Assembly (NCBI GenBank): GCA_017609985.1
Contig: JAFCCW010000018.1
Span: 1 to 15,850, forward strand
Length of the DNA: 15,850 nucleotides
Source: Candidatus Iainarchaeum sp.
GTDB lineage: Archaea > Iainarchaeota > Iainarchaeia > Iainarchaeales > JAFCCW01
Direction of reading: 5' to 3'
Shown: positions 91 to 15,686 of the stretch, one piece after another
Numbering within the stretch: the stretch's first letter is position 1
Layout: each line of letters opens with the position of its first letter
Notes under the pieces: model-generated
Databases searched by the model: none
The model's input: only the letters and a program-made list of their open reading frames with translations
What the model was told of the DNA's origin: nothing
Position numbers and translations under genes: made by a program

Positions 91-109
91 ATAGGGGCGG
101 AGCCCCTAT
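91..109. repeat. GC-rich hairpin (8-bp stem), terminator or mobile-element-end-like
   Basis: ATAGGGGC-GGA-GCCCCTAT, preceded by CGGGGTC. It contains the stop codon of the minus-strand ORF 106..411. Confidence 0.6.
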
Positions 110-411
110 TTCATTAGTACTCGGTGTTTTATCTGGATTGTCCTTTTTTTTCTCAAATCAAGACAAAGCAAACCATAAGCGCAGTGAAAGAAAGAATAAT
201 ATGCCAAGACGGCTTCAGTAAGAGGAGACTTCAATTCTTTTCCAGCCATAAAGGACAATATCAAATAGTTCATCGCCCAAACAAAATGTGCATCAGCTAT
301 GTTCAATTGCTCTTTTTGCGTTTTATCAATATTTCTGCTAAAGAATTTTTCTAAAATTTTTTTGTTAACTATTCTATTTGGTAAAGCCATACTCTTAATA
401 GGGTTTAACAT
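106..411 (-). pseudogene. HEPN-domain-like protein, apparently C-terminally truncated
   Basis: VLAYYSFFHCAYGLL...IKH resembles the HEPN N-terminal motif AYYAxFHAAxALL...K(S/T)H. The ORF stops 5 residues after the His and lacks the C-terminal half. Confidence 0.5.
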
Positions 412-860: not shown

Positions 861-907
861 AAGAAAATTAATTAACCTTCCTAACCCTTATTTTAACTGG
901 TTAAAAT
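861..907 (+). promoter_or_regulatory. Putative archaeal promoter of argS (BRE/TATA-like) with palindrome over the start
   Basis: AAGAAAA followed by TTAATTAA (868-875), about 30 nt before the ATG. ATTTTAAC-TG-GTTAAAAT at 890-907. No Shine-Dalgarno site. Confidence 0.45.
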
Positions 908-2624
908 GCTTGAATTCAAAGAAGAAATTTCAACAGCGGTTGAAAAAGCATTGAATGGAAAACTTAAGCGAAACGAAATAGTTAACCTTATGGAAGTGCC
1001 TCCGTCTCCTGAACTGGGCGATTTTGCTTTCCCTTGTTTCAAGCTCTCTGCTTTAATGAAAAAAGCACCAAACGTCATCGCTGTGGAACTATCCAAAAAA
1101 ATCGTTTTGCCGGAATGCGTTGAGAAGACAGAACCTGCTGGTCCATACATCAATTTTTTTATAACAAAGCAGTTCATCGCAAGCCAGGCTATAAAAAAGG
1201 TTTTGTCGCAAAAAGAAGAGTTTGGCCGCAGCTCGCTTGGCAACGGACAAAAAGTAATGGTTGAGTACAGTGCGCCGAACACAAACAAGCCTTTGCATTT
1301 AGGGCATTTGAGAAATAACTTTCTTGGCATGTCTGTTGCAAGAATTTTGCAAGCAAACGGCTTTGAGGTTGTAAAGGCAAACCTTGTCAATGACAGGGGC
1401 ATTCATATCTGCAAGAGCATGCTTGCCTACAAGCTGTTTGGCAAAGGCAAAACTCCTGAATCTGAAAACAAGAAGTCAGACCATTTTGTTGGCGACTACT
1501 ATGTAATGTACAATCAAAAAGTCAAGGAAAATTCTGATTTGGAAAAGCAAGCCTATGACATGCTGCAAAAATGGGAAAAAGGAGACAAGGAAACAATTGC
1601 ATTGTGGGAAAAAATGACTAAATGGGCAGTTGACGGCTTCAAACAAACCTATAAAAAGTTTGGAACAAAATTTGACACTTGGTTTTTTGAATCCAAGTTC
1701 TACGACAAGGCAAAGCCTGTTCTTGAGCTTGGAAAAGAAAAAGGTCTTTTCAAAGAAAACGACGAAGGTGCTTTAATGGCGCAGCTTGAAGAGCATGGCA
1801 TGCCAAACAAAACCGTTTTGAGAGCAGACGGAACAAGCATTTACATTACAAACGACTTGGCTTTAACCAAGCACAAGTTTGAGCACTTCAAGCTTAATGA
1901 GGCGTTTTGGGTTGTTGCCTCTGAACAAGACTTATACTTCAAGCAGCTTTTCAAGATATTTGAACTGGTTGGCTTTCCTTGGGCAAAAAATTGCAAACAC
2001 TTAAGCTATGGCATGGTAAACCTGCCTTCCGGCAAGATGAAAAGCAGAGAAGGAACAGTTGTTGACGCTGATGACTTACTTGCCGAGCTCGAAGGGCTTG
2101 CAAGAGAAAAAATTAAAAAGCGTGACGAGAAGATTGGAAAGAAAGAGCTTGGTGAAAGAAGCATGGCGATTGCCCTGGCTGCCATAAAGTTTCACTTGCT
2201 CAAGGTTGCAGCCAAAAAGGACTTGCTTTTCAATCCAAAGGAAAGCGTTTCTTTTGAGGGTGAAACAGGCCCTTACATCCAGTACACTCACGCTAGGGCA
2301 AAAAGCATTCTGAGAAAAGCAAAAGATGCTGCCAAACCTACAGGCTTCAAGAACCTTTCAAGCGCGGAAGAACAAAAGCTTGCAAAGCTGCTTGCCTCCT
2401 TTCCAAGCATTGTGGAAAAAAGCTTGCAACAGATGAGCCCTCATATAATATGCCAGTTTTTGATTGAAACAGCCGAAGCCTTTAACACGTTTTACCACAA
2501 ACACCGCGTAATTCAAGCCTCTGACAAAGTCCGCAGCGAAAGGCTTGCCTTAGTGAAAGCAACGGCACAGGTTTTGAAAAACGGGTTGTCTTTGCTTGAC
2601 ATTGAAGCAATAGAAGAAATGTAG
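906..2624 (+). CDS. argS: Arginine--tRNA ligase
   Basis: 572 aa; VEYSAPNTNKPLHLGHLRN (HIGH motif), GKMKSREG (KMSKS-like), FEGETGPYIQYTHARAKSIL, C-terminal DALR-type domain ending IEEM. Confidence 0.98.
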   Translation: MLEFKEEISTAVEKALNGKLKRNEIVNLMEVPPSPELGDFAFPCFKLSALMKKAPNVIAVELSKKIVLPECVEKTEPAGPYINFFITKQFIASQAIKKVLSQKEEFGRSSLGNGQKVMVEYSAPNTNKPLHLGHLRNNFLGMSVARILQANGFEVVKANLVNDRGIHICKSMLAYKLFGKGKTPESENKKSDHFVGDYYVMYNQKVKENSDLEKQAYDMLQKWEKGDKETIALWEKMTKWAVDGFKQTYKKFGTKFDTWFFESKFYDKAKPVLELGKEKGLFKENDEGALMAQLEEHGMPNKTVLRADGTSIYITNDLALTKHKFEHFKLNEAFWVVASEQDLYFKQLFKIFELVGFPWAKNCKHLSYGMVNLPSGKMKSREGTVVDADDLLAELEGLAREKIKKRDEKIGKKELGERSMAIALAAIKFHLLKVAAKKDLLFNPKESVSFEGETGPYIQYTHARAKSILRKAKDAAKPTGFKNLSSAEEQKLAKLLASFPSIVEKSLQQMSPHIICQFLIETAEAFNTFYHKHRVIQASDKVRSERLALVKATAQVLKNGLSLLDIEAIEEM

Positions 2625-2654: not shown

Positions 2655-3071
2655 TTACATTCTTCTTTTTCTTAACTCGGCTTGTGCTAGTGGTTGGTAG
2701 TGTTTGAATAGGTTGAGGTCTCTAAGCGCTTTGTGAAGCCTGATATCTATAGGGTTTTGAGAAGGCCCCCAATGACTGTGCGGGTCGAACCCTACAAAGT
2801 ATGGCTTTGCTTTTGCTTCGAGTTTGGCAATGTCTTGTGAAAGCCTGTAGTGCCTGTGCCCAAAGTCCCGAAGCTTTTCCTCGGCTTTTATGAAGCTGAA
2901 GTTTTTCATGTTTGTGTGGAATTCTTGAAACTGGTCTACAAGCTTCTGCGTTTTTTCAGCCAGGTTTTTGGAGTTTTTTTCCAGTTCCCTTCGAACAGCA
3001 ACTTTTTTCTTTAACGGCAGTCGCTTGAAGGTGGTTGAAAAGAAGCGTTTTTCAATTTTTGGACGTGGCAT
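2655..3071 (-). CDS. Hypothetical basic protein (ORFan, 138 aa)
   Basis: ATG start, TATA-like box about 22 nt upstream, fills the gap between argS and the ACT gene; no recognisable motif. Confidence 0.75.
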   Translation of the reverse strand: MPRPKIEKRFFSTTFKRLPLKKKVAVRRELEKNSKNLAEKTQKLVDQFQEFHTNMKNFSFIKAEEKLRDFGHRHYRLSQDIAKLEAKAKPYFVGFDPHSHWGPSQNPIDIRLHKALRDLNLFKHYQPLAQAELRKRRM

Positions 3072-3127: not shown

Positions 3128-3760
3128 TCAGAATTTCAGCACTTTCATCGCTTTTGCCAAGTCTTCTTCTTCTATTACAAACAAGGTGTCTGTCCAGCTT
3201 GACATTGTTTCCAAAATGTTGATTTCGTTTTCTCCAAACAGGGAGTAAAGGTATGCTACAATTCCTGATGTTTTCTCTATCTCCTTTGATGCCTTGAGGA
3301 GAATTTCAACCAAATCTTTTTTTTCATCAATTATCCCAAACTTGAATTTGTTCCTTATTTTTTTGCCGAACTTTTGGTCGGTAATCAAAGTAAAGGTTTT
3401 GCTTCCCTCTATAAGGTGAAAGGAGCCTTGTTCGCTTGTAATTTCTTTTGCCAAATCAATTATTCCTTCAAAGGAAACAGCTTGGTCCAAAATCGCCACC
3501 ATCATCTTGCTTTTTGTTTCCAAACGGCTTTTTTTGAGAATATCCATTATCTCATTTTCTTTGACCGCAGGTAATGCCATCTTTTCCGCATATCTCCTGC
3601 TTGCAACCAACACGGCCTCAAAATTTTTTAATCCCTCAAGTTTCAATTCTTCAATGATTTTTCTTGACAAAGCAGAATAATTAATCAGCCCCATCTTTAG
3701 GCAATCCTTAATACTTGGATGCGAAACAATGTATTCCTCTGTTGCTTTTGCTATGCTCAT
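3128..3760 (-). CDS. ACT-domain protein with N-terminal helical (HTH-like) domain; putative amino-acid-sensing regulator
   Basis: 210 aa; N-terminal DCLKMGLINYSALSRKI motif; C-terminal aspartokinase/CASTOR-type ACT signature TSGIVAYLYSLFGENEINILETMSSWTDTLFVIEEED; divergent from the arg operon. Confidence 0.85.
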   Translation of the reverse strand: MSIAKATEEYIVSHPSIKDCLKMGLINYSALSRKIIEELKLEGLKNFEAVLVASRRYAEKMALPAVKENEIMDILKKSRLETKSKMMVAILDQAVSFEGIIDLAKEITSEQGSFHLIEGSKTFTLITDQKFGKKIRNKFKFGIIDEKKDLVEILLKASKEIEKTSGIVAYLYSLFGENEINILETMSSWTDTLFVIEEEDLAKAMKVLKF

Positions 3761-3939: not shown

Positions 3940-5157
3940 ATGACAAAAGAGAAAATTGTTTTGGCCTTTTCAGGCGGACTGGACACATCGTTCTGTGTTC
4001 CATATTTGAAAGAAAAGTATAACGCAGACATAATCACAGCCATTGTTGACACAGGCGGCTTTTCAGAAAAAGAACTGAAAGAAATTGAAGAAAAATCAAA
4101 AAAGCTTGGCGCAATAAAACACTACACAGTTGACGGAAAAAGCAACGTGTTCAACGAATTTATAACCTATATAATCAAGGGAAATGTCTTAAGGGGAGGC
4201 GTCTATCCGCTAAGTGTTGCGGCCGAAAGGATTGTTCAAGCAGAGGAAATTGTAAAAATTGCCAAAAAAGAAAACGCAACTGCAATAGCCCATGGCTCAA
4301 CAGGAGCAGGAAACGACCAAGTAAGGTTTGACACAGCATTCAGTGTTCTTGCGCCAAACATAAAAATCATGACACCCATAAGGGTGCTTGGAATATCAAG
4401 GGAAGAGGAAACCAAATACCTAAACAAAAAAGGCTTTCCAGTTAAATCGGAAACAAAAAAATACTCAATAAACTCAGGGCTTTGGGGAACCACAATTGGC
4501 GGAGGAGAAACACACAACAGCTGGCAGGACATTCCAAACCAGGCATTTACCCAAACACAGCCAATAGAAAACACCCCTAATGACCCGGAAACGATTGAAA
4601 TAGAATTCAGCAAAGGAATTCCAATCGCGCTAAATGGAAAAAAAATGGCTGGAATAGAACTAGTCAAAAAACTGAACGAACTTGGAAACAAACATGGCAT
4701 AGGCCGAGGAATACACATCGGAGATACAATTATGGGAATCAAGGGAAGAATTGGCTTTGAGGCACCAGCGCCAATAATCCTAATCAAAGCACACAAAGAA
4801 CTTGAAAAATTGGTTTTAACCAAATGGCAACAGTTTTGGAAAGACCAACTTAGCAATTTTTTTGGAATGGCATTGCACGAAGCATTATACTTTGACCCAA
4901 TAACAACAGACATTAAGGCATTGATTGACTCAAGCCAGGAAAAAGTTTCAGGAAAAGTCAAAGCAAAACTCTTAAAGGGAAAGGCATCAATCACAGGATG
5001 CAAAAGCCCTTACTCAATGATGGACAAAGACATTGCAACATACGGCGAAGGCACCCTTCTCTGGAACGGGGAAGAAGCCAAAGGATTCTGCAAAATATAC
5101 GGAATTCAAAGCCTTCTGGCAAAAAAAGCAGCGGAAAAAGGAGCGAAACAAAAATGA
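3940..5157 (+). CDS. argG: Argininosuccinate synthase (copy 1)
   Basis: 405 aa; PP-loop LAFSGGLDTS, AHGSTGAGNDQVRFD, GIKGRIGFEAPA. Confidence 0.97.
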   Translation: MTKEKIVLAFSGGLDTSFCVPYLKEKYNADIITAIVDTGGFSEKELKEIEEKSKKLGAIKHYTVDGKSNVFNEFITYIIKGNVLRGGVYPLSVAAERIVQAEEIVKIAKKENATAIAHGSTGAGNDQVRFDTAFSVLAPNIKIMTPIRVLGISREEETKYLNKKGFPVKSETKKYSINSGLWGTTIGGGETHNSWQDIPNQAFTQTQPIENTPNDPETIEIEFSKGIPIALNGKKMAGIELVKKLNELGNKHGIGRGIHIGDTIMGIKGRIGFEAPAPIILIKAHKELEKLVLTKWQQFWKDQLSNFFGMALHEALYFDPITTDIKALIDSSQEKVSGKVKAKLLKGKASITGCKSPYSMMDKDIATYGEGTLLWNGEEAKGFCKIYGIQSLLAKKAAEKGAKQK

Positions 5158-6191
5158 AAATCAAAGTAGACAAAATATCCTCATCAACAAAAAACACAAA
5201 ACTTTCAACAATAGTGGAAGTATCCAAAAAAATTGATACAAAAGAAGGAAGCGTTATAATTGTTGAAGCCTTGGACGAAAACCTGGCTTACGGCAAAATT
5301 GAACTGCTTACAGGAAGAATGAGCAAAGTAATTGAAGGGGACATAATCGCAGGAACCCTCGGAGAAAGAAAAGCACTTAAAGGATACTCAGGCACAATTC
5401 CAAAAAAAGTCAAGCCAGGCGACAAGCTAAACCTGCTCAACCTTGGCGGCATAATTGGAAAACTTGTTTCAGGAAATCCCGAACTTGGAAAGCCAATCGA
5501 AGTAAAAGTCATAGGGCAGGCAATAATCTTTCCAGTGTTCGACCAAAGGATTGGAAAACCAGCCAACATAAAAGAAAACGCCATTGCCTGGAAAGACAAT
5601 CTGGAAAAAAGCGTTCCGCTAATAATCTTCTCAGCCTCCTGCATGGACACAGGCAAAACAACAGCCGCATGCGAGCTAATCAAAGGGCTTACAGCAAAAG
5701 GCTACAAGGTTGCCGCTACAAAACTTACAGGAGTCTCGCTTATGAGAGATACCCTAAACATGAAAGATTACGGCGCAGTCAAAGTCCTTGACTTCAACGA
5801 CGCAGGCATGGCCTCAACAACCGGCAAAAGCATTAACAGCCTTGCCAAAGGAATAATCTCAAAACTAACCAAAGAAAACATAGATTGCATTGTAATAGAA
5901 CTAGGAGACGGAATACTCGGAGACTACGGCGTCAAATCATTCCTGGAAGACAAGCAAATAATGAAATTCGCAAAAGCCCACATAATATGCGCAAACGACC
6001 AGGTTTCAGCATGGGGAGCCAAACAACTGTTCCAAAAATTTGGCTTAGAAATCACACTAATCTCCGGAAGAGTTACAGACAACACAGTTGGAACAGAATT
6101 TATCGAAAAAACACTAGGAATTCCAGCAGCAAACGGAATAACAAACCCAAAAAAAATTGTTTCAATAATTGAAAAGAAGGTGTTCAAATGA
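5154..6191 (+). CDS. DUF1611/DgcN-like P-loop protein; candidate glutamate N-acylating enzyme
   Basis: True start is probably ATG 5154 (ATGA overlap with the argG stop), 345 aa. Walker-A-like SASCMDTGKTT, KLTGVSLMRD, DFNDAG and VIELGDGILG. Its stop overlaps the argC ATG. The CDS is secure; the function is inferred. Confidence 0.8.
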   Translation: MKIKVDKISSSTKNTKLSTIVEVSKKIDTKEGSVIIVEALDENLAYGKIELLTGRMSKVIEGDIIAGTLGERKALKGYSGTIPKKVKPGDKLNLLNLGGIIGKLVSGNPELGKPIEVKVIGQAIIFPVFDQRIGKPANIKENAIAWKDNLEKSVPLIIFSASCMDTGKTTAACELIKGLTAKGYKVAATKLTGVSLMRDTLNMKDYGAVKVLDFNDAGMASTTGKSINSLAKGIISKLTKENIDCIVIELGDGILGDYGVKSFLEDKQIMKFAKAHIICANDQVSAWGAKQLFQKFGLEITLISGRVTDNTVGTEFIEKTLGIPAANGITNPKKIVSIIEKKVFK

Positions 6192-7207
6192 AGAAAAAAG
6201 TAGCAATAATTGGAGCAGGCGGATACGTCGGAAGCGAACTGCTGCGCTTGCTTTTATTCCACGACGGAGTTGAAGTAACCAAGGCAATAAGCCTTGAAAA
6301 CATAGGAGAAAACGTTGCAGTAGTGCACAAAAATCTGCAAAACCTCACAAGCCTGTGCTTTTCCAACGAACCAGCAGACAAAATAGCCAAAGAAGTCGAC
6401 CTGATTCTCTTTGCGCTGCCCCACTGCCTTGCAATGAACATGGTTCCAAAAGCAATTGGAAAAGCAAAAATAATTGACCTAAGTGCAGACTACAGAATAG
6501 AAAACCCAAAAACCTATGAGCAATTTTACAAAAAACACTCGTCGCCACAGCTAATCAAAGAATTCATATACGGGTTTCCTGAATTTAACAAAGAAGAAGT
6601 GAAAAAAGCCGAAAACATTGCCAATCCAGGCTGTTTTCCAACAGGCGCGCTTCTAGCCCTAATGCCGCTAGCAAAAGAAAATATGCTAACAGACCACGTG
6701 ATAGTTGACGCAAAAACTGGCTCAAGCGGTTCGGGAGTACACCCCGGACTTGGCACACACCATTCAGAAAGAGCAGAAGACTTCAAGGCATACAAAGTGC
6801 TAAAGCATCAGCATGGGCCAGAAATAGAACAAGAACTGAAAAAAGCAAACAAAAAAGAATTTGACTTCACATTCGTAACACACTCAGCACCAATGATTAG
6901 GGGAATTTTCATAACAGCCTATGTGTTCTTAGAAAAGGAAACCACAAAAGAAGAACTGGAAAAGATTTACAAAAAATACTACGAAAAAGAGCCATTCGTC
7001 AGAATTGTTGAGCAAGCAAGAAGCACTGTAGTAAAAGGAACAAACTTTTGCGACATAAGCATAGCATGCCAAGGCAAAAAAGCAGTGATAACAACAGCAG
7101 TCGACAATCTAGTGAAAGGAGCGGCAGGAACAGCAGTGCAAAACATGAACCTAATGCTTGGATTCGAAGAAACAAAGGGTTTGATGTTTCCAGGAACACA
7201 CCCCTAA
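6188..7207 (+). CDS. argC: N-acetyl(acyl)-gamma-glutamyl-phosphate reductase
   Basis: 339 aa; IIGAGGYVGSEL, ALPH, IDLSADYR, catalytic IANPGCFPTG, DNLVKGAAGTAVQNMN. Confidence 0.97.
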   Translation: MKKKVAIIGAGGYVGSELLRLLLFHDGVEVTKAISLENIGENVAVVHKNLQNLTSLCFSNEPADKIAKEVDLILFALPHCLAMNMVPKAIGKAKIIDLSADYRIENPKTYEQFYKKHSSPQLIKEFIYGFPEFNKEEVKKAENIANPGCFPTGALLALMPLAKENMLTDHVIVDAKTGSSGSGVHPGLGTHHSERAEDFKAYKVLKHQHGPEIEQELKKANKKEFDFTFVTHSAPMIRGIFITAYVFLEKETTKEELEKIYKKYYEKEPFVRIVEQARSTVVKGTNFCDISIACQGKKAVITTAVDNLVKGAAGTAVQNMNLMLGFEETKGLMFPGTHP

Positions 7208-7224: not shown

Positions 7225-8397
7225 ATGAACAACGAAGAAATAATAAAACTGGAAGACAAATACCAACTGCAAACATACAAAAAATACCCAATCGCCTTGG
7301 TAAAAGGAAAAGGCTGCAAGGTATGGGATGCAGACGGAAAAGAATACACAGACTTCTACGGCGGTCACGCAGTAGCCCTAACAGGGCACTGCCATCCAAC
7401 AGTAGTCAAGGCAATCCAAGAACAAAGCCAAAAGCTGATATTCTACTCAAATGCAGTTTATAATGATGTGAGAGCAGAAGCAAGCCAGCAAATCATAAAA
7501 GTTTCACCAGAAGGCCTAACCAAAGTCTTTTTTTGCAACAGCGGAGCCGAAGCAAACGAAACAGCCCTAAAGATTGCAAGAAAATTCACAGGAAAAAACG
7601 AAATCATTGCAATGAAAAACGGCTTCCACGGCAGAACAATAGCAGCACTTAGCGTAACAGGAATAGACAAATACCGTGCACAATTCAAGCCACTGCTTGA
7701 ACACACAAAATTTGCCGAATTTGGCAACATTAAAAGCGTAAAAAAACTTGCAAGCGATAACACAGCAGCAATAATCCTAGAACCAGTTCAAAGCATGGCA
7801 GGAATAGTCACAGCAAACCAGCAATACTTCCAAGAACTAAAAGAATTCTGCTCAGAAAAAGGTATAGTGCTTATTTTTGACGAAATACAAACAGGATTTG
7901 GCAGAACAGGAAAAATGTTTGCAGCCCAATACTATGGCGTTACCCCAGACATTATTACCTGCGCCAAAGGAATAGCAAGCGGCTTTCCAATGGGCGCAAC
8001 AATTGTAAAAAACGAAATCGCAGAAACAATCTCATTTGGAGAACAAGGCTCAACATTCGGAGGCTCGCCACTAGCCTGTGCCGCAGCAAAAGCCTCGGTT
8101 GAAGCAATTCTGAAAGAAAACATGACAAAAAACGCAGACGAAATCGGCAAATACATCAAAGAAAAGCTAGGTGGACTAAAAGGAGTAAAAGAAATAAGAG
8201 GCCCAGGCCTGCTAAAAGGCATAAAGCTTGAAACAGAAGCAAAGCCAATTGTAGGAAAGCTTCTTGAAAAAGGATTCATAGTGGGAACAGCGGTTGTGGA
8301 AAATGACGTCATACGCCTGATGCCGCCCCTTACAATAGGAAAAAAAGAGGTTGATGAACTCTACGCAGTTCTGAAAGCCTTGCTGGAAGGAAACTAA
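7225..8397 (+). CDS. argD: Acetylornithine/succinylornithine aminotransferase (class III PLP)
   Basis: Start at ATG 7225 after AAGGTGA SD, 390 aa; CNSGAEANE, GFHGRT, EPVQ, DEIQTGFGRTG, PLP lysine in AKGIASG. Confidence 0.95.
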   Translation: MNNEEIIKLEDKYQLQTYKKYPIALVKGKGCKVWDADGKEYTDFYGGHAVALTGHCHPTVVKAIQEQSQKLIFYSNAVYNDVRAEASQQIIKVSPEGLTKVFFCNSGAEANETALKIARKFTGKNEIIAMKNGFHGRTIAALSVTGIDKYRAQFKPLLEHTKFAEFGNIKSVKKLASDNTAAIILEPVQSMAGIVTANQQYFQELKEFCSEKGIVLIFDEIQTGFGRTGKMFAAQYYGVTPDIITCAKGIASGFPMGATIVKNEIAETISFGEQGSTFGGSPLACAAAKASVEAILKENMTKNADEIGKYIKEKLGGLKGVKEIRGPGLLKGIKLETEAKPIVGKLLEKGFIVGTAVVENDVIRLMPPLTIGKKEVDELYAVLKALLEGN

Positions 8398-8400
8398 AAA

Positions 8401-9408
8401 ATGAGCCTAAAAAACAAAAACCTTGTTTCAACACAAGACTGGAAAAAAGAAGAACTAGACCAAGTGCTCGACCTAGCCATAAAACTGAAAAAAAAACCAT
8501 TCAACAAAAACCTGGCAAACAAAACCCTTTTTATGGTCTTCTTCAATCCATCACTTAGAACAAGATCCAGTTTCGAAACAGCAATGAACCAGTCCGGTGG
8601 ACACGCAGTTAACCTGGCAATAGGCCAAGGAATGTGGAAGCTTGAACACCAAGAAGGGACAGTAATGAATGGCGAATGCGCAGAACACATTAAAGACGCA
8701 GCAAAAGTTTTATCAAGATACGGCAACGCCATAGGCGTAAGATGCTTTCCAGAACTAAAAAACTGGAAAAAAGAAAAAAACGACTCGATTATCAAAGGAT
8801 TTGCCAAACACGCGTCCACGCCCGTAATAAACATGGAGTCAACGCTCTACCACCCCTGCCAAGCACTGGCAGACATCATGACAGTAAAAGAACACCTAGG
8901 CAAAACAAAAAAGAAAAAATTTGTTCTGGCATGGTGCTACCACCCAAAAGCATTGCCAACCGCAGTTCCAAACTCAGCAGCATTAATCGCAAGCAGATAT
9001 GGCATGGACACAACCATTGCCTGCCCAAAAGAATTCGAGCTAGACCCAAGCATAATCAAGTCAGTTAAAGAAAACTGCAAACTAAACGGAAGCAAAATGG
9101 AAATAGTGAACGACATGGACAAAGCACTCAAAGGAGCAGACATAGTTTATGCAAAAAGCTGGGGTTCAATAAACTACTATGGAAACTGGGACGAGGAAAA
9201 AATTCTTAGAAATAAGTTAAAAGACTGGAAAATAACAAAACAAAAAATGCAATTAACAAACAACGCAAAATTCATGCACTGCCTGCCAGTCAGAAGAAAC
9301 GTCGTAGTTGACGACGCTGTAATTGACAGCAAAAACAGTCTCGTTTACGATGAAGCAGAAAACAGGCTGCATGTACAAAAAGCGTTGCTAAACAGCATCA
9401 TGAGGTGA
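8401..9408 (+). CDS. argF: N-acylornithine carbamoyltransferase (ArgF', AOTCase/SOTCase family)
   Basis: 335 aa; FFNPSLRTR, EHIKD, INMES..HPCQ, WCYHPKALPTAVPNS, YAKSWG and HCLPVRRN are diagnostic of ArgF'. The DxxxSMG motif of canonical OTCase is absent. Confidence 0.95.
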   Translation: MSLKNKNLVSTQDWKKEELDQVLDLAIKLKKKPFNKNLANKTLFMVFFNPSLRTRSSFETAMNQSGGHAVNLAIGQGMWKLEHQEGTVMNGECAEHIKDAAKVLSRYGNAIGVRCFPELKNWKKEKNDSIIKGFAKHASTPVINMESTLYHPCQALADIMTVKEHLGKTKKKKFVLAWCYHPKALPTAVPNSAALIASRYGMDTTIACPKEFELDPSIIKSVKENCKLNGSKMEIVNDMDKALKGADIVYAKSWGSINYYGNWDEEKILRNKLKDWKITKQKMQLTNNAKFMHCLPVRRNVVVDDAVIDSKNSLVYDEAENRLHVQKALLNSIMR

Positions 9409-9416
9409 AAAAACAA

Positions 9417-10331
9417 ATGGAAAAAATCCCGTTTTTGATAGAAATACTTCCATACGTGCTAAAATTCAGAAAAACAACATTCGTAATCAAGCTAGGTGGA
9501 GACAACGCAAAAGAACAAAAAAAGCTGGAAGCTCTAGCCAAAGACATGACCTTGCTCCACAATCTTGGCGTAAACATCGTCATAGTCCACGGAGGCGGGC
9601 CACAAGCAAACGAACTGCTCAAAAAACTTGGCTACCCCCTCCAAAAAATAAACGGAAGAAGGATTACTGACAAGCAAACTCTGGAAGTGGCAAAAATGGT
9701 TTACGCAGGAAAAGTAAACACTGAGATAGTCGCAGCCCTGCAAAAAGCAGGAACTCATGCAGTAGGGCTTACAGGAGTAGACTGCAATCTTGTTTATGCA
9801 AAAAAAAGAGAACCCCAAAAAATCAAGAACAAAAAAACGGGAAAAACAGAAGAAATAGACTTTGGCTATGTAGGAGACATCAAAAAAATAAACCTTGAGG
9901 TAGTCCAAGACCTGCTTGAAAAAAACTGCGTGCCAGTAATAGCCTGTCTAGGGGCAGACAAAGACGGAACAATACTCAACATAAATGCAGACAACATTGC
10001 GGAAGAAATTTCCAAAGCACTGAAAGCCGAAAAATTTATCAGCGTAACCAATGTCCCAGGAATCCTTGAAAACAAAGAAGACAAAACAAGCACAATATCA
10101 TACCTAAACGTCTGCAATGCAAAAAAACTGCTGAAAAGCAAAAAAATCACAGACGGAATGCTGCCAAAACTAGAATCATGCATCGCAGTAGTCGAAGGCG
10201 GAGTAAAAAGAGCCCACATCATAGACATGACACAGCCACATAGCATCCTAATAGAAATCCTAACAAACCAAGGTAGTGGAACAATGATTGTGAGCAAAGA
10301 AGAAGAAGCAAAATACAAGCAAAAGGGGTAG
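9417..10331 (+). CDS. argB: Acetyl(acyl)glutamate kinase
   Basis: VIKLGG, VHGGGP, RITD, NINAD, GMLPKL. ATG 9417 follows a GAGGTGA SD; the alternative start is GTG 9405. No fused acetyltransferase domain. Confidence 0.96.
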   Translation: MEKIPFLIEILPYVLKFRKTTFVIKLGGDNAKEQKKLEALAKDMTLLHNLGVNIVIVHGGGPQANELLKKLGYPLQKINGRRITDKQTLEVAKMVYAGKVNTEIVAALQKAGTHAVGLTGVDCNLVYAKKREPQKIKNKKTGKTEEIDFGYVGDIKKINLEVVQDLLEKNCVPVIACLGADKDGTILNINADNIAEEISKALKAEKFISVTNVPGILENKEDKTSTISYLNVCNAKKLLKSKKITDGMLPKLESCIAVVEGGVKRAHIIDMTQPHSILIEILTNQGSGTMIVSKEEEAKYKQKG

Positions 10332-10339
10332 GCAAAAAA

Positions 10340-11380
10340 ATGGAAGCAAAAGAACTGCTAAAAAAGCTGGTGGAAATCCCAAGCATCTCAGGAAACGAGG
10401 CACAAATCAGCCAATTCGTTTTCGATCACCTGCAAGAAAACGGCTTGTCACCCAAACAATACAAAGACAACGTCTACTGTTCAATAGGAAAAGGCAAACA
10501 AATACTGCTCTTAAACAGCCACCTTGACACAGTACCAGTCTGCCCTGGCTGGAACCAAGATCCATTCAAACCAAAAGAAGCCAACGGAAAAATCTGCGGC
10601 TTGGGAGCAAACGACACAAAAGGCTCAATGACAGCAATGATCAACGCTTTCAAAAAGCTCGCTGACTCAAAAGACCTAAAAGGAAAAGTCTTTTTTGCAG
10701 CATCAACCCAAGAAGAAACAAACAACATCGGCATAAAGCAACTCACTGAAAAGATTCCCAAAGTTGACGCCGCAGTAATAGGCGAGCCAACAGAATTAAA
10801 CATTTGCACCGCAATGCGCGGTTTGGCAATACTAAAATTTGTTGCAAAAGGCAAAAGCGGGCACGCGTCCAGACCAAGCCAAGGAGTCAACGCCATATAC
10901 AAAGCAATTGAAGACATTAAAAAACTAAGATCGCTGGAATTTGAAAAAGCGCACAAGCTGCTTGGAAAGCCAACAATCACAACAACACTTATAAGCGGTG
11001 GCACAAAAAACAATGTGATTCCAGGCGAATGCGAGTTCACGACAGATGTGAGAACCACTCCAATTTATCCAAACAAGAAAATGATTGACCTGATAAAAGA
11101 AACAGCCACTTCTGAGGTTCAAGTGCTAAGCGATAGGTTGTGCCCCAAAGAAACAAGCGAAAGCGAAAAAATTGTTCTGGCAGCACAAAAAGCTTGTCCT
11201 GAAGGAAAACTTTTAGGCTTTCCCGCAATGTGCGACTGGGTATTCATCGACGCGCCAGGTATAATCTTCGGACCAGGAATAACAACCCAATCTCACACTC
11301 CAAACGAGTTCATCGAAATAAAGCAAGTTGAAAAAGCAGGCGAAATCTACCAAAAGATTGTGCATGAATTCTTCAAGTGA
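10340..11380 (+). CDS. argE: M20 family deacylase (ArgE/DapE-like; probable N-acylcitrulline/ornithine deacylase)
   Basis: 346 aa; metal-ligand motifs NSHLDTV, GANDTKG, QEE, IGEP, SHTPNE; operon context. Confidence 0.88.
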   Translation: MEAKELLKKLVEIPSISGNEAQISQFVFDHLQENGLSPKQYKDNVYCSIGKGKQILLLNSHLDTVPVCPGWNQDPFKPKEANGKICGLGANDTKGSMTAMINAFKKLADSKDLKGKVFFAASTQEETNNIGIKQLTEKIPKVDAAVIGEPTELNICTAMRGLAILKFVAKGKSGHASRPSQGVNAIYKAIEDIKKLRSLEFEKAHKLLGKPTITTTLISGGTKNNVIPGECEFTTDVRTTPIYPNKKMIDLIKETATSEVQVLSDRLCPKETSESEKIVLAAQKACPEGKLLGFPAMCDWVFIDAPGIIFGPGITTQSHTPNEFIEIKQVEKAGEIYQKIVHEFFK

Positions 11381-11386
11381 ATCAAA

Positions 11387-12733
11387 ATGAAGTTATGGCA
11401 AAAAAAGGGAACAACGCTTCACAAAGAAATCGAGCAATACACCGTAGGCAATGACCCATTCCTAGACCAAAAACTTGTCAAAGTTGACGCAATTGCATCC
11501 ATCGCACACGCTAGCATGCTTAACAAGATAAACATCCTAACAAAACAGGAACTCAAAGCACTGAAAAAAGAACTCTGCAACATAATAAAGCTTGACAAGA
11601 AAAACAAATTCAAAATAACCCTCAAAGACGAAGATGTTCACACAAAAATTGAAAACCACTTGACAAAAAAGCTTGGAAAACTTGGGAAAAAAATTCACAC
11701 AGGCAGAAGCAGAAACGACCAAGTAATAGTAGACACAAGACTATACTCTAAAGAAAAACTGCTGGGCATAGAAGAACAAGCCATAAAACTATGCCAGGCT
11801 TTAGCCAAGCAAAGCCAAAAAAACCAAAGCACTCCAATGCCTGGTTATACGCACATGCAAAAGGCAATGCCCTCATCAGTAGGCCTATGGCTAGGCAGCT
11901 TTGCCGAATCACTCTTAGATTACTTGGAATTGCTTGATGCAGCCTACAAGCTAAACAACCAAAATCCACTGGGCTCGGCAGCAGGCTACGGCGTTCCCCT
12001 AAACCTTGACAGAAATATGACAACAAAACTTTTGGGCTTTGCAAAAACCCAAAACAACATATTGTACGTGCAAAATAGCAGGGGAAAAATAGAACTTGCC
12101 ATCCTTAACGCTTTAACACAAATAATGCTTGATTTAAACAAACTGGCAACAGACCTTCTCTTGTTCACAATGCAAGAATTTCAGTTCTTTGAAATACCAG
12201 ACGAATTCTGCACCGGAAGCAGCATAATGCCCCACAAAAAAAACAAAGACGTGCTTGAATTGATTAGGGCAAACTATGGCATAATGCTTGGTTACTCCAC
12301 CCAAATCGCAAACATCATAAGTTCACTGCCATCAGGCTATAACAGGGACTTGCAGCTTACAAAAGAGCCACTAATGGCGGGACTTGAACTCGCAAACTCA
12401 ACACTCTCAATATGCACTCTTGTAATTTCAAAACTGGAAGTCAACAAAAAAAACCTGCTGAAAGCATGCACACCAGAGCTTTTTGCCACAGGAAAAGCAT
12501 TTGAACTGGCTAAAAAAGGAATTCCGTTCAGAGAAGCCTATAAGACAATAAAAAATACAAACGAATGGCACAAATCCGACGCAACCAAAAACATCATGCA
12601 AAAAAAATACGCTGGTGCAACAGGAAACCTTGGCCTGCCAAAACTAGAAAAGGAAATTGCCAAAAAGAAAAAAATAATTTCAAAAAAACAACACCAGCTA
12701 AACTCTACCCTAAACAAGCTTCTTAGACAATAG
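11387..12733 (+). CDS. argH: Argininosuccinate lyase
   Basis: 448 aa; IHTGRSRNDQ, MPGYTHMQKA, GSSIMPHKKN, LPSGYNRDLQ, GIPFREAY. No C-terminal ArgA fusion. Confidence 0.97.
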   Translation: MKLWQKKGTTLHKEIEQYTVGNDPFLDQKLVKVDAIASIAHASMLNKINILTKQELKALKKELCNIIKLDKKNKFKITLKDEDVHTKIENHLTKKLGKLGKKIHTGRSRNDQVIVDTRLYSKEKLLGIEEQAIKLCQALAKQSQKNQSTPMPGYTHMQKAMPSSVGLWLGSFAESLLDYLELLDAAYKLNNQNPLGSAAGYGVPLNLDRNMTTKLLGFAKTQNNILYVQNSRGKIELAILNALTQIMLDLNKLATDLLLFTMQEFQFFEIPDEFCTGSSIMPHKKNKDVLELIRANYGIMLGYSTQIANIISSLPSGYNRDLQLTKEPLMAGLELANSTLSICTLVISKLEVNKKNLLKACTPELFATGKAFELAKKGIPFREAYKTIKNTNEWHKSDATKNIMQKKYAGATGNLGLPKLEKEIAKKKKIISKKQHQLNSTLNKLLRQ

Positions 12734-12779: not shown

Positions 12780-13550
12780 ATGAAACCAAAAACAAGATCG
12801 AAAAAGCCAACAGACCTTTACAACTGGGGCAAAAAAGACATCTTTCTCAGCCAAGCCATCAAAAAGATTGGCATAACACCAAAAATCGTGACAGAAATCG
12901 CGCCAGGGCAAAACCCACACTTCTTCGCAGAAATCGCAAGAAACTTTCCAAGCCTTAAAAAATACAGGCTCGTAGACCAGAAAAAAACCCAATTCAAACA
13001 GTACGCCAAACACAAAGGCGTAAAAGAAGTCGAAAAACACAAAAACAAAATAGACGAAATAACACAACACTACTTTGCAACAAAAAAACTCCCATCAGAC
13101 CTGATAATAAGCCACCACGGCTTTGGCCCATGGATGTTCAACCACAGAACCAACCTTGTTAAAGTAGCAGGAGACCTCAAAATCGGAGGCGGCATAATAT
13201 TAAGGCAAAACTCAAAAGACTTCTCCCATTACATCAAACCAGATGCCCTAAAACTCTTAGCCAAAGCAGGATTCAAAGTTACGCTGTACGCAGACACGTT
13301 TCAAGGACTGAAAAAGATTTCGTTCAACGACCTAAAAAAAATAAACAAAAGCAAGCTGGTAAAAGGACAAGTTAGCCTCATAGCCAAAAAAGAAAGACAG
13401 CTTTCAGGCAAACAAAGAGGGCAACTGCTTTTGGAAGCCATGAACGCAGACATTCGCGACAAAAGATGGAAAGACCCAACAGCAGAAGTCGAAAAAAGAA
13501 AACTGCTTGAAGCAAAAGCAAAGCTGGAAAAAGCCCTTAGAAGAATGTAG
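12780..13550 (+). CDS. Hypothetical basic protein, possible degenerate class I SAM-methyltransferase fold
   Basis: 256 aa; VTEIAPGQ, YRLVD, DLIISH and LKIGGGIIL appear in Rossmann MTase order. Confidence 0.7.
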   Translation: MKPKTRSKKPTDLYNWGKKDIFLSQAIKKIGITPKIVTEIAPGQNPHFFAEIARNFPSLKKYRLVDQKKTQFKQYAKHKGVKEVEKHKNKIDEITQHYFATKKLPSDLIISHHGFGPWMFNHRTNLVKVAGDLKIGGGIILRQNSKDFSHYIKPDALKLLAKAGFKVTLYADTFQGLKKISFNDLKKINKSKLVKGQVSLIAKKERQLSGKQRGQLLLEAMNADIRDKRWKDPTAEVEKRKLLEAKAKLEKALRRM

Positions 13551-13551
13551 C

Positions 13552-14241
13552 TTATATCCTTCTTATAATTCTTCTTTTCTTCGCTCTCTTAACAAACTTT
13601 GAGAATTTTTGGCCCTTTTTTTCCCACAACTCCACCAAATCCATTGCATCATAGCCAGAAATGTCCCTTCCACGAATTTTCTTCTTTCTGCTTAACGCAA
13701 GCTGCAATTCGCTTATTGCTTTAGTCGTGTTAAATCCCGCTTTAATTGCAGCAAAAGCCAACGCCTCTCCACCCCTATGCGCTAAATCGGTTAAATGAGG
13801 ATCAGACTCTCCCCCTTTAGGATAACACACATCATAATAGCTTTTTCTAAACTGCTTTGTCAAGCTTTCCACCTTCTTTTTGTCCCTTTTCCTCAACGCA
13901 AGTTTGAATTGCTCCAGCCTGTCAAAAGCTTCACCTATCTTTAAATCCGGCCTAATCTTTAAACGTTTGTTAATATAAGAATTCATGACATGCGCTGCCT
14001 CTGCCACCACAACATAAGGATCTGGCTTTGAAATATAAACCAAATAGCCTCTTCCACCATACTCTAAAAGAGGAACCACCGTACCACCTTCCACTCTGGC
14101 AAATATGCTAGCGGACACGCCAAACTTTTTAGCATCACTGGTTTTGTTAATCAAAACACACCTAGGTTTTGTCTTAACCTGAAGTGTCTTCATCAACCTC
14201 TGCAAATCCCTTTCAAACAATTCCTTAGTTTTATCAACCAT
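13552..14241 (-). CDS. Hypothetical basic protein (229 aa)
   Basis: ATG start with upstream AGAAAAAA-TTTTAAAT; convergent with 12780..13550, 1-nt gap. Confidence 0.75.
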   Translation of the reverse strand: MVDKTKELFERDLQRLMKTLQVKTKPRCVLINKTSDAKKFGVSASIFARVEGGTVVPLLEYGGRGYLVYISKPDPYVVVAEAAHVMNSYINKRLKIRPDLKIGEAFDRLEQFKLALRKRDKKKVESLTKQFRKSYYDVCYPKGGESDPHLTDLAHRGGEALAFAAIKAGFNTTKAISELQLALSRKKKIRGRDISGYDAMDLVELWEKKGQKFSKFVKRAKKRRIIRRI

Positions 14242-14290: not shown

Positions 14291-14489
14291 TAAAATCACC
14301 CAATGTTCTCATAAGCATCCATTCTATAACAAGAAAAGAGCCGTAATATTTTTAACCCTTAAACCAAGAAATGACACACCTGCTTCAAGAAAAACCCTTT
14401 AAAAATTTTTGAGGAAAAGTGTTAAAAGACATTTAACCCACCAATTATTAACACAATTCACCCTTTTCAGTACTGATACAGGTGACGGA

Positions 14490-15686
14490 ATGAAAAACAC
14501 AAAAAACAAAATAATACTGGCATTTTCAGGAGGTCTGGATACTTCCTTCGCAGTTTTACACCTTAAAGAAAAAGGATACGACGTTATCACTTTAACAGTT
14601 GACACTGGCGGACTAGGCAAAAAAAAGATTAAAGAAATTAAAAACAGAAGCAAACAGCTTGGCGCAAAAAAACATTACTTTATCGACGCCAAAAAAGAAA
14701 TCTTTGACGAAATAATCTCCTACCTAATAAAAGCAAACGGCCTATACCAAGGAATCTACCCCAACATGTGCGCTGACAGATACACCATCGCAAAACACTT
14801 GGTAAAAACAGCAAAAAAAGAAAACACAAAACTTGTTGCACACGGCTGCACAGGAGCAGGAAACGACCAAATAAGAATTGACATCACCTGCAATTGCCTA
14901 AACCCAAAACTTGAAATAATTGCGCCAATAAGAGACCTTGGAATCACAAGGCCGGAAGAAATAAAATACTTAAAAGAAAAAGGCTTCAAAGTCTCAAAAG
15001 AAACAAAAAAATACACGATAAACGAAAACATTTTCGGAAGAACAATCTCTGGCTCAGAAATAGACAAAAACAAGGAACCAAGCGAACAAGCATGGGTTCT
15101 AACAAAAGAAACAAAGCAAAAACCACAATACTTTGAAATAGAATTCAACAAAGGCATACCAGTTGCACTAAACGGAGAAAAAATGCACGGAGCCAACATA
15201 CTAAAAAAGCTAAACAAGGAAGTCGGCGCCCACGGATACGGAAGAGGCTTGTATATAGAAGACGAAACAATTGGAATAAAAGGCATCCAAGCATTTGAAG
15301 CACCAGGGCTGCTTCTTTTAATAGAAGCCCACAAAGCACTAGAAAGACTAACCCTAACATGGAACCAACTCTCAACCAAACAATTCCTAGACAACACCTG
15401 GGCAAGCATGGCATACAGAGGGCTATTGGCAGACCCAGTAATAGCAGACATTCAAGCATTCTTAAACAAAAACCAGGAAATGGTTTCAGGCAAAGTCAAA
15501 ATAAAAGTCCACCAAAAAACAGCCTTTCCCACCGAAGTCCACAGCCCAAACTCGCTGATAAGAGAAGACATAGCAAAATACGCCCAAAAAGCAACCTGGA
15601 CAGGAAAAGAAGCACAAGCCTTCATAAAACTATACTCACTACAACAAAAAATCGCGGCAAGCAGAAAAAAAGAAAAAAAACAATAA
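14490..15686 (+). CDS. argG: Argininosuccinate synthase family protein (copy 2, divergent)
   Basis: Start at ATG 14490 after AGGTGA SD, 398 aa; LAFSGGLDTS, AHGCTGAGNDQIRID, YTINEN, FEAPG. Confidence 0.93.
   Translation: MKNTKNKIILAFSGGLDTSFAVLHLKEKGYDVITLTVDTGGLGKKKIKEIKNRSKQLGAKKHYFIDAKKEIFDEIISYLIKANGLYQGIYPNMCADRYTIAKHLVKTAKKENTKLVAHGCTGAGNDQIRIDITCNCLNPKLEIIAPIRDLGITRPEEIKYLKEKGFKVSKETKKYTINENIFGRTISGSEIDKNKEPSEQAWVLTKETKQKPQYFEIEFNKGIPVALNGEKMHGANILKKLNKEVGAHGYGRGLYIEDETIGIKGIQAFEAPGLLLLIEAHKALERLTLTWNQLSTKQFLDNTWASMAYRGLLADPVIADIQAFLNKNQEMVSGKVKIKVHQKTAFPTEVHSPNSLIREDIAKYAQKATWTGKEAQAFIKLYSLQQKIAASRKKEKKQ

Follow-up and report, generated by a model that had tools for sequence, protein, structure and literature searches.

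Two knotted transcarbamylases, the N-acetyl-L-ornithine carbamoyltransferase (AOTCase) of Xanthomonas campestris and the N-succinyl-L-ornithine carbamoyltransferase (SOTCase) of Bacteroides fragilis, are told apart in section 8 of PMC4581275 by three residues. AOTCase has Glu92, Asn185 and Lys302, and SOTCase has at the equivalent positions A, S, P, V or Q, then P, and then V, I or E. According to GapMind 2020 (PMC7311316) and a GapMind 2026 preprint (10.1101/2024.10.14.618325), which cite Shi et al. 2007, the X. campestris enzyme turns to N-succinylornithine when Glu92 is exchanged for Ala. Appendix 2 of the preprint predicts a family of P-loop proteins (ACG33_RS14135) to be an alternative N-succinylglutamate synthase. 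The preprint also gives A, P, S or V at position 92 in 90% of 70 ArgF' proteins adjoining P-loop homologues and predicts succinylated intermediates from this. Here, we analysed a stretch of 15,850 nucleotides (the window) from the archaeon Candidatus Iainarchaeum sp. (contig JAFCCW010000018.1 of assembly GCA_017609985.1), in which an argF' gene lies in an arginine operon together with a P-loop gene. This ArgF' is probably an N-succinyl-L-ornithine carbamoyltransferase in a linear, succinyl-protected arginine pathway, and the operon appears to have displaced an ArgJ/ornithine carbamoyltransferase (OTC) cluster at the locus. The concept has already been published for bacterial operons, and the window is mainly a new archaeal example; modestly new are the small-genome archaeal host, the swap at the level of the locus relative to a member of the same order, and the missing source of succinyl-coenzyme A (succinyl-CoA). 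The gene and its three signature codons are as follows.

8401-9408, plus strand: argF', knotted N-acyl-ornithine carbamoyltransferase of 335 amino acids with an SOTCase-type signature, flanked by argD and argB
8680-8682, plus strand: codon GCA for Ala94, in the column of X. campestris Glu92 and B. fragilis Pro90
8956-8958, plus strand: codon for Pro186 (in HPKALP), in the column of X. campestris Asn185
9304-9306, plus strand: codon GTA for Val302, in the column of X. campestris Lys302

Judged by its sequence, ArgF' is a member of the knotted N-acyl-L-ornithine carbamoyltransferase family. Both Pfam domains, OTCace_N and OTCace, are present, and the protein scores 475.3 bits against NCBIfam model NF003384 ('N-acetylornithine carbamoyltransferase', cut-off 288) while remaining below the cut-offs of the OTC models NF001986 (249 bits, cut-off 306) and TIGR00658 (232.8 bits, cut-off 280.85). 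The transcarbamylase motifs S51-L-R-T54 (SxRT), H151-P-C-Q154 (HPxQ) and H293-C-L-P296 (HxLP), as well as R114, the conserved Arg of strand beta-4, are each invariant or near-invariant among 120 homologues (the best 120 of 8000 scored, as in all homologue counts below). The sequence signatures of the knotted group given in PMC4581275 are a proline-rich loop, an extended 80's loop with a Trp and an extended 120's loop. The loop YHPKALPTAVPNS of ArgF' is the proline-rich one, W79 aligns with X. campestris W77, and the 80's and 120's regions are gap-free against the X. campestris chain in the phmmer alignment. Compared with the active-site table of PMC4581275, the carbamoyl-phosphate and ornithine residues S51, R53, T54, W79, R114, E146, H151, Q154, K252, C294, L295 and R322 are all kept. 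The column of Ala94 is a homologous one and does not belong to a chance motif.

An initial annotation, made from the sequence alone, had singled out Ala94 in VMNGEC-A-EH and the lack of the Xanthomonas Lys in HCLPVRRNV-V, in a protein otherwise resembling that of Xanthomonas, and had read them as succinyl-type, with intermediates that may be succinylated or carry another non-acetyl group. The translation of 8401-9408 bears out these features: it contains TQDW, FFNPS, VMNGECAEH, YAKSWG and HCLPVRRNVVV. Searched with phmmer at E <= 1e-20, the PDB chains yielded 46 distinct sequences. X. campestris AOTCase and point mutants of it take the first eight places (E 2.5e-104 to 1.7e-103), and B. fragilis SOTCase ranks after them (E 3.4e-62). 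The best of the 46 is 3l02, the E92A mutant, with Ala at column 92 (E 2.5e-104). The alignment with the X. campestris enzyme, set beforehand as a possible refutation, places Ala and not Glu at this column: Ala94 sits on residue 92 (chain position 112, because of a 20-residue tag), with few gaps and none near 92. The other X. campestris chains have Ser (3l05), Val (3l06) or Glu (3m4n) there, and the Lys that follows RRNV aligns with Val302. In line with the residues that the initial annotation gave for the two reference enzymes, 3m4n has the Glu and a Bacteroides ArgF' (locus L079) has Pro at the column of Ala94. ArgF' is therefore Ala94/Pro186/Val302, with all three discriminators of SOTCase type and none of the three AOTCase residues, and on this signature N-succinyl-L-ornithine would be the most likely substrate. 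The residues that anchor the succinyl carboxylate in B. fragilis SOTCase, H176, R178 and R278 according to PMC4581275, correspond to His181, Lys183 and Arg298 in ArgF'; Lys183 in place of Arg178 is the state of X. campestris AOTCase and of 101 of the 120 homologues.

Ala94 is not unusual, as a residue other than Glu is the majority state of the ArgF' family. Column 94 of the 120 homologues holds T (37), A (31), E (25), S (17), V (6), P (3) and Q (1), which makes 95 without Glu, and in 94 of these 95 the residue is paired with Pro at column 186. Pro occupies column 186 in 94 of the 120, and Asn was found there only together with Glu at column 94, in 23 of those 25 sequences. The four commonest residues at column 302 are V (64), I (18), K (17) and E (13), and the exact A/P/V signature occurs in 17 sequences, the query counted. 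The same picture was obtained from 80 arg loci among the matches listed in a scan of genome contigs, mostly bacterial and at most 50% identical: 61 are non-Glu, 9 are Glu/Asn/Lys (mostly Xanthomonadales-type, plus one metagenome-assembled genome (MAG) labelled Caulobacterales), and 10 carry another transcarbamylase subfamily. The novelty implied by the initial annotation is reduced by this majority, and the same position-92 argument had already been made for bacteria in 10.1101/2024.10.14.618325. Two homologues, P0017 and P0019, combine Glu at column 94 with Met/Ile in the two remaining signature columns. They branch, in an ArgF' tree whose root was not inferred, beside the query clade and far from the Xanthomonadales-type Glu/Asn/Lys clade; because of this placement, Glu at column 94 may have arisen more than once.

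The argF' gene belongs to a tightly packed operon with the order argG-Ploop-argC-argD-argF'-argB-argE-argH, the other members of which are listed here.

3940-5157, plus strand: argG copy 1, at the head of the operon (NF001770, 394 bits, cut-off 334)
5154-6191, plus strand: P-loop protein of 345 amino acids, candidate glutamate N-acylating enzyme; its ATG overlaps the argG stop
6188-7207, plus strand: argC (TIGR01850, 391.8 bits)
7225-8397, plus strand: argD, N-acyl-ornithine aminotransferase (TIGR00707, 440.8 bits); likely start ATG 7225 after GGTG
9405-10331, plus strand: argB, N-acyl-glutamate kinase (TIGR00761, 237.4 bits); its GTG at 9405 overlaps the argF' stop
10340-11380, plus strand: argE-like M20 deacylase, expected N-acyl-citrulline hydrolase (TIGR01910 ArgE/DapE, 205 bits, under the cut-off of 217.6)
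11387-12733, plus strand: argH (TIGR00838, 333.7 bits)

The family matches of argD start near residue 60-74 of a longer open reading frame (ORF), and argB has an alternative in-frame ATG at 9417. In the proposed pathway, the genes of which appear to be translationally coupled, the P-loop protein would make N-succinylglutamate, which ArgB, ArgC and ArgD would convert to N-succinylornithine. ArgF' would then carbamoylate the N-alpha-protected ornithine at its delta-amino group, with carbamoyl phosphate as the donor, to give N-succinylcitrulline, the M20 deacylase (ArgE) would free citrulline, and ArgG and ArgH would finish arginine. CarB is present in the genome, so that carbamoyl phosphate should be available, and no ArgJ was found in the genome. 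If this pathway is true, arginine synthesis through succinyl-protected intermediates, until now discussed in bacteria, is also at work in archaea with small genomes.

The succinyl-type reading of the initial annotation gains support from the A/P/V signature and also from the gene order, which is that of the succinyl-pathway operons of Bacteroidota, argG-argC-argD-argF'-argB-M20-argH. Like ArgF', B. fragilis SOTCase and its Bacteroidota relatives lack Glu in the 90/92 column, carry Pro in the 185 column and have an aliphatic residue next to RRN[VM]. Of the three B. fragilis succinyl anchors, the His and one Arg recur in ArgF'. The ArgE-like protein scores 174-236 bits against the M20 protein that follows argB in most Bacteroidota/Chlorobiota loci (137 in L076), and 73-109 bits against those of Xanthomonadales-type loci. 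Unlike the window, which has its P-loop gene inside the operon, the Bacteroidota operons have a GNAT gene of ~205 amino acids upstream of argG (a position seen in two loci). Such an arg-cluster GNAT occurs in 34 of the 80 listed loci, never together with a P-loop gene, and no homologue of it was found in this genome (best E 0.56). The Bacteroides ArgF' is 40% identical to that of the window, B. fragilis SOTCase differs by Pro at the key column and by Arg178, where the window protein has Ala and Lys183, and the 240's region is longer in ArgF', as it is in X. campestris. X. campestris AOTCase, for its part, is the nearest relative of known structure. The two proteins align over their full length, agree in loop lengths and keep the catalytic residues, but AOTCase has Glu92, Asn185 and Lys302 instead of Ala, Pro and Val. 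The ArgF' proteins of Xanthomonadales-type loci are 46-49% identical to that of the window, whereas their operons have the order argF'-argG-argE-argB-argC-argH and no P-loop gene.

The operons of Steroidobacter denitrificans type described in the preprint (10.1101/2024.10.14.618325) resemble the window in having the P-loop gene between argG and argC and a residue other than Glu at 92, and in lacking ArgA and ArgJ. They are described there for bacteria, whereas the host of the window is an archaeon, and S. denitrificans is said there to lack an argE, for which the window has an M20 candidate. In four Steroidobacteraceae loci that bear the P-loop gene, its product is 41-43% identical to that of the window. 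Syntenic P-loop homologues of 36-44% identity were detected altogether in 11 of the 80 listed arg loci, from Pyrinomonadaceae, Holophagaceae, Steroidobacteraceae, Myxococcota, Planktophila and Fimbriimonadaceae. All 11 carry the non-Glu, Pro, V/I/A/E signature in ArgF', and the P-loop gene is missing from all 9 Glu/Asn/Lys loci. ArgB of the window is 44-45% identical to its counterparts in the Pyrinomonadaceae P-loop clusters, compared with 26-29% in Xanthomonadales.

For the P-loop protein, the initial annotation had proposed an N-succinylglutamate synthase, in agreement with the prediction of the preprint; this assignment of function is drawn mainly from the gene context. The only Pfam match of the protein is a sub-threshold one to MobB. 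PF07755 (DUF1611) was not matched by the protein at E <= 10, nor anywhere in the genome at E <= 0.001, and a language-model search returned clusters named DUF1611 at 0.98. The family comprises 1754 matches in 6605 candidates, none of them named among the 120 matches listed. The preprint describes the family as remotely similar in structure to D-glutamate acetyltransferase (PDB 7XRJ). A confident AlphaFold model of the window protein (pLDDT, predicted local distance difference test, 92.9) shows a P-loop domain preceded by an N-terminal domain made up entirely of beta structure. The top PDB matches of this model in Foldseek were SRP54/FtsY, dethiobiotin synthetase and HypB (~E 1e-6), and 7xrj was absent among the 49 matches listed. 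A sequence-profile search of the family against the PDB gave no significant match, the best being dethiobiotin synthetase over the nucleotide loop (E 0.27). Aligned with hhalign to a DUF1611 profile of four sequences, which itself matches 7xrj at 6.6e-79, the family gave a weak match of 39% probability (E 3e-4) that covers 176 columns, all of them in the P-loop domain. The link to the DUF1611/7xrj acetyltransferase is thus weak.

Several observations weigh against a succinylated substrate. In the sources cited here, the specificity rule is supported by one natural non-Glu enzyme (B. fragilis, Pro) and by engineered X. campestris mutants. The overall similarity of ArgF' favours X. campestris AOTCase (E 2.5e-104) over B. 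fragilis SOTCase (E 3.4e-62), and its NCBIfam label is AOTCase, though the model does not separate the two types. The sole characterised distant relative of the P-loop family named in 10.1101/2024.10.14.618325 is an acetyltransferase. In the assembly, which is 86.6% complete, no succinyl-CoA ligase domain was found except for one in a 902-amino-acid frame that also has a GNAT domain, no CoA-transferase of three families was found, and the single 2-oxoacid:ferredoxin oxidoreductase is of the four-subunit pyruvate type. Acetyl-CoA therefore looks available and succinyl-CoA is without a visible source, a gap that at this completeness is no proof of absence. Without a recognisable source of succinyl-CoA, the operon might work with acetyl groups, with some other acyl group or through acylation by the P-loop protein at the expense of ATP, and the genome becomes a useful test case for the real substrate of the P-loop enzyme. 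The 902-amino-acid open frame (G000:C34:59939-62095, minus strand), with Succ_CoA_lig and GNAT domains, is the only Succ_CoA_lig match of the genome and presumably resembles the Pat-type protein acetyltransferases.

That ArgF' is an N-acetyl-L-ornithine carbamoyltransferase despite having no Glu92, with intermediates acetylated from acetyl-CoA, we regard as rather unlikely. The nearness to X. campestris AOTCase, the score of 475 bits above the NF003384 cut-off, the pyruvate:ferredoxin oxidoreductase as a supplier of acetyl-CoA in a genome with no recognisable source of succinyl-CoA, and the D-glutamate acetyltransferase named in the preprint as the structural relative of the P-loop family would all suit it. 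However, none of the three AOTCase signature residues is present, and the exchange of Glu92 for Ala is the very one reported in PMC7311316 and the preprint, citing Shi et al. 2007, to turn the X. campestris enzyme to N-succinylornithine. Nor does the name of the model tell the acyl group, since NF003384 scores both types: 627 bits for a Lysobacter Glu/Asn/Lys protein, 475 for ArgF', 450 for a Pyrinomonadaceae T/P/V protein and 282 for a truncated Bacteroides P/P/I protein. Database names such as 'N-acetylornithine carbamoyltransferase' thus hide the acyl specificity.

Enzymes of the dethiobiotin synthetase class activate carboxyl or carbamate oxygens with ATP. The P-loop protein might likewise ligate a free carboxylic acid to glutamate with ATP, so that ArgF' would use a product carrying another acyl group, or succinate without succinyl-CoA. 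This explanation, which seems unlikely to us, would fit an assembly in which no succinyl-CoA ligase, 2-oxoglutarate-type oxidoreductase or CoA-transferase of three families was found, as well as the rank of dethiobiotin synthetase as the best PDB profile match of the family (nucleotide loop, E 0.27) and among the top Foldseek matches of the predicted model (~E 1e-6). The pocket of ArgF', which keeps His181, Lys183 and Arg298, would suit an anionic acyl tail. On the other hand, the similarity to dethiobiotin synthetase is weak and common to other P-loop nucleoside triphosphatases (SRP54/FtsY, HypB), the assembly is 86.6% complete, and its contig with the operon possibly comes from a co-binned relative, as there are two ArgS copies. 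In addition, the distant relative named in the preprint uses acetyl-CoA. Decidedly doubtful is the narrower version of a CoA-independent start, in which the P-loop protein joins a free dicarboxylic acid, succinate or other, to glutamate with ATP, the A/P/V ArgF' uses the product and the native ArgJ/OTC genes were displaced. If such an ATP-dependent reaction were true, arginine synthesis would begin with a CoA-independent N-acylation.

The contig that bears the operon and the probable N-succinylornithine pathway is archaeal, as the setting given in the initial annotation implied. The assembly (1.16 Mb, 37 contigs) has an archaeal small-subunit ribosomal RNA, and the following gene of the contig served as a lineage marker.

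906-2624, plus strand: argS (TIGR00456, 515 bits)

Its product is 63% and 61% identical to the ArgS of two members of the same order, G073 and G151. The ArgF' tree has the query in a clade of 14 rows (Shimodaira-Hasegawa-like approximate likelihood ratio test (SH-aLRT) support 95), the only named rows of which are Woesearchaeota, Micrarchaeota and Thermoplasmatota, and the closest named homologues of the P-loop protein are from Micrarchaeota, Woesearchaeota and Ranarchaeia. They lie on contigs of the same lengths as the ArgF' matches, which suggests that the two genes are co-located in other archaea too. A metagenome scan with ArgF' alone gave 13 distant loci of 24-42% identity, with no close archaeal relative among them. 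A bacterial contamination of the archaeal bin, which would make the pathway non-archaeal, is highly improbable. Most operon genes are nearest to bacterial ones among the genome loci (ArgG is 49-51% identical to the ArgG of bacterial arg clusters and 33% to that of G151), only 2 of 55 chunks of the same size lie as far from the remaining bin in tetranucleotide composition as the contig (C1, distance 0.0198), and the bin holds a second ArgS. Set against these points are the ArgS identities and the archaeal names in the ArgF' clade and among the P-loop homologues, a GC content of 40.1% for a bin mean of 38.7% (standard deviation 1.4), and the similarity of ArgH (56%) and of an ACT-domain protein (49.5%) to those of G151, where they likewise belong to, or flank, an arg cluster by argS.

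The second ArgS (G000:C8:29528-31222) is 57% identical to that of the window, and both copies are ~60-63% identical to those of relatives of the same order, which indicates either paralogy or two co-binned related organisms. Because a second ArgS and a second ACT-domain gene lie on contig C8, and because the composition of C1 is somewhat atypical, C1 might stem from a second, related organism of this order in the same bin.

The arginine cluster of G151 is canonical, with the order argG-argH-argF(OTC)-argJ-argD-argC-argB, and lies between a divergent ACT-domain gene and argS. It shares with the window these two flanking genes, the end product and an ArgH of 56% identity (37-47% in the bacterial loci). 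Unlike the window, it encodes ArgJ (438.6 bits) and an OTC of the unknotted type (386 bits) and lacks the P-loop gene, ArgF' and argE, and ArgG, ArgC, ArgD and ArgB of the two clusters are 33-40% identical. The common flanking genes and the related ArgH, together with the divergence of the other enzymes, suggest that an acetyl-cycle ArgJ/OTC cluster was replaced in place by the P-loop/ArgF'/ArgE module. The comparison within one order would then be a clean natural example of an arginine module swap at one chromosomal site.

De novo ornithine synthesis is rare among 215 genomes of the phylum. ArgH was found in 34 of them and ArgJ in 7; ArgF' was detected at E <= 1e-60 in two, the window's own and one with a divergent subfamily, and the P-loop protein at E <= 1e-10 in two, the full-length one of the window and one weak partial match. 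A literature search on succinylornithine and archaeal arginine biosynthesis, which covered part of the matching literature, returned no description of an archaeal SOTCase-type pathway, and a search linking acetylornithine carbamoyltransferase with DPANN returned nothing.

The remaining features of the window lie on either side of the operon.

3128-3760, minus strand: DUF7523 and ACT-domain protein, possible amino-acid-sensing regulator, divergent from argG
14409-15686, plus strand: second argininosuccinate synthase gene (NF001770, 369.7 bits, cut-off 334), 49% identical to the operon argG
12780-13550, plus strand: ORF with no Pfam match
13552-14241, minus strand: ORF with no Pfam match
2655-3071, minus strand: ORF with no Pfam match
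106-411, minus strand: ORF with no Pfam match

Three of these four ORFs were scanned with NCBIfam and had no match there either, and two of the four lie between argH and the second argG. The two ArgG copies are 33% and 36% identical to the ArgG of G151, neither of them close. An assignment of the second copy as an argG-related non-synthase was discarded, as it passes the argininosuccinate synthase cut-offs and scores 155 bits against argG_rel (cut-off 425). The DUF7523 and ACT-domain gene is also found near the second argS (G000:C8:27459-28079) and by the arg cluster of G151 (L108:5592-6230), with 44-50% identity, and its product may regulate the arginine genes of this order in response to amino acids.

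The patterns used for ArgF' also caught a separate transcarbamylase subfamily, with H[CP]LPADR instead of HCLPVRRN and without the VMDG..EH 80's loop. Its loci are L024, L043, L047, L053, L061, L068, L073, L075, L077, L084 and L091, and its hosts are Chloroflexota, Bathyarchaeia, an Actinomycetota MAG and one genome of the phylum of the window (G056).

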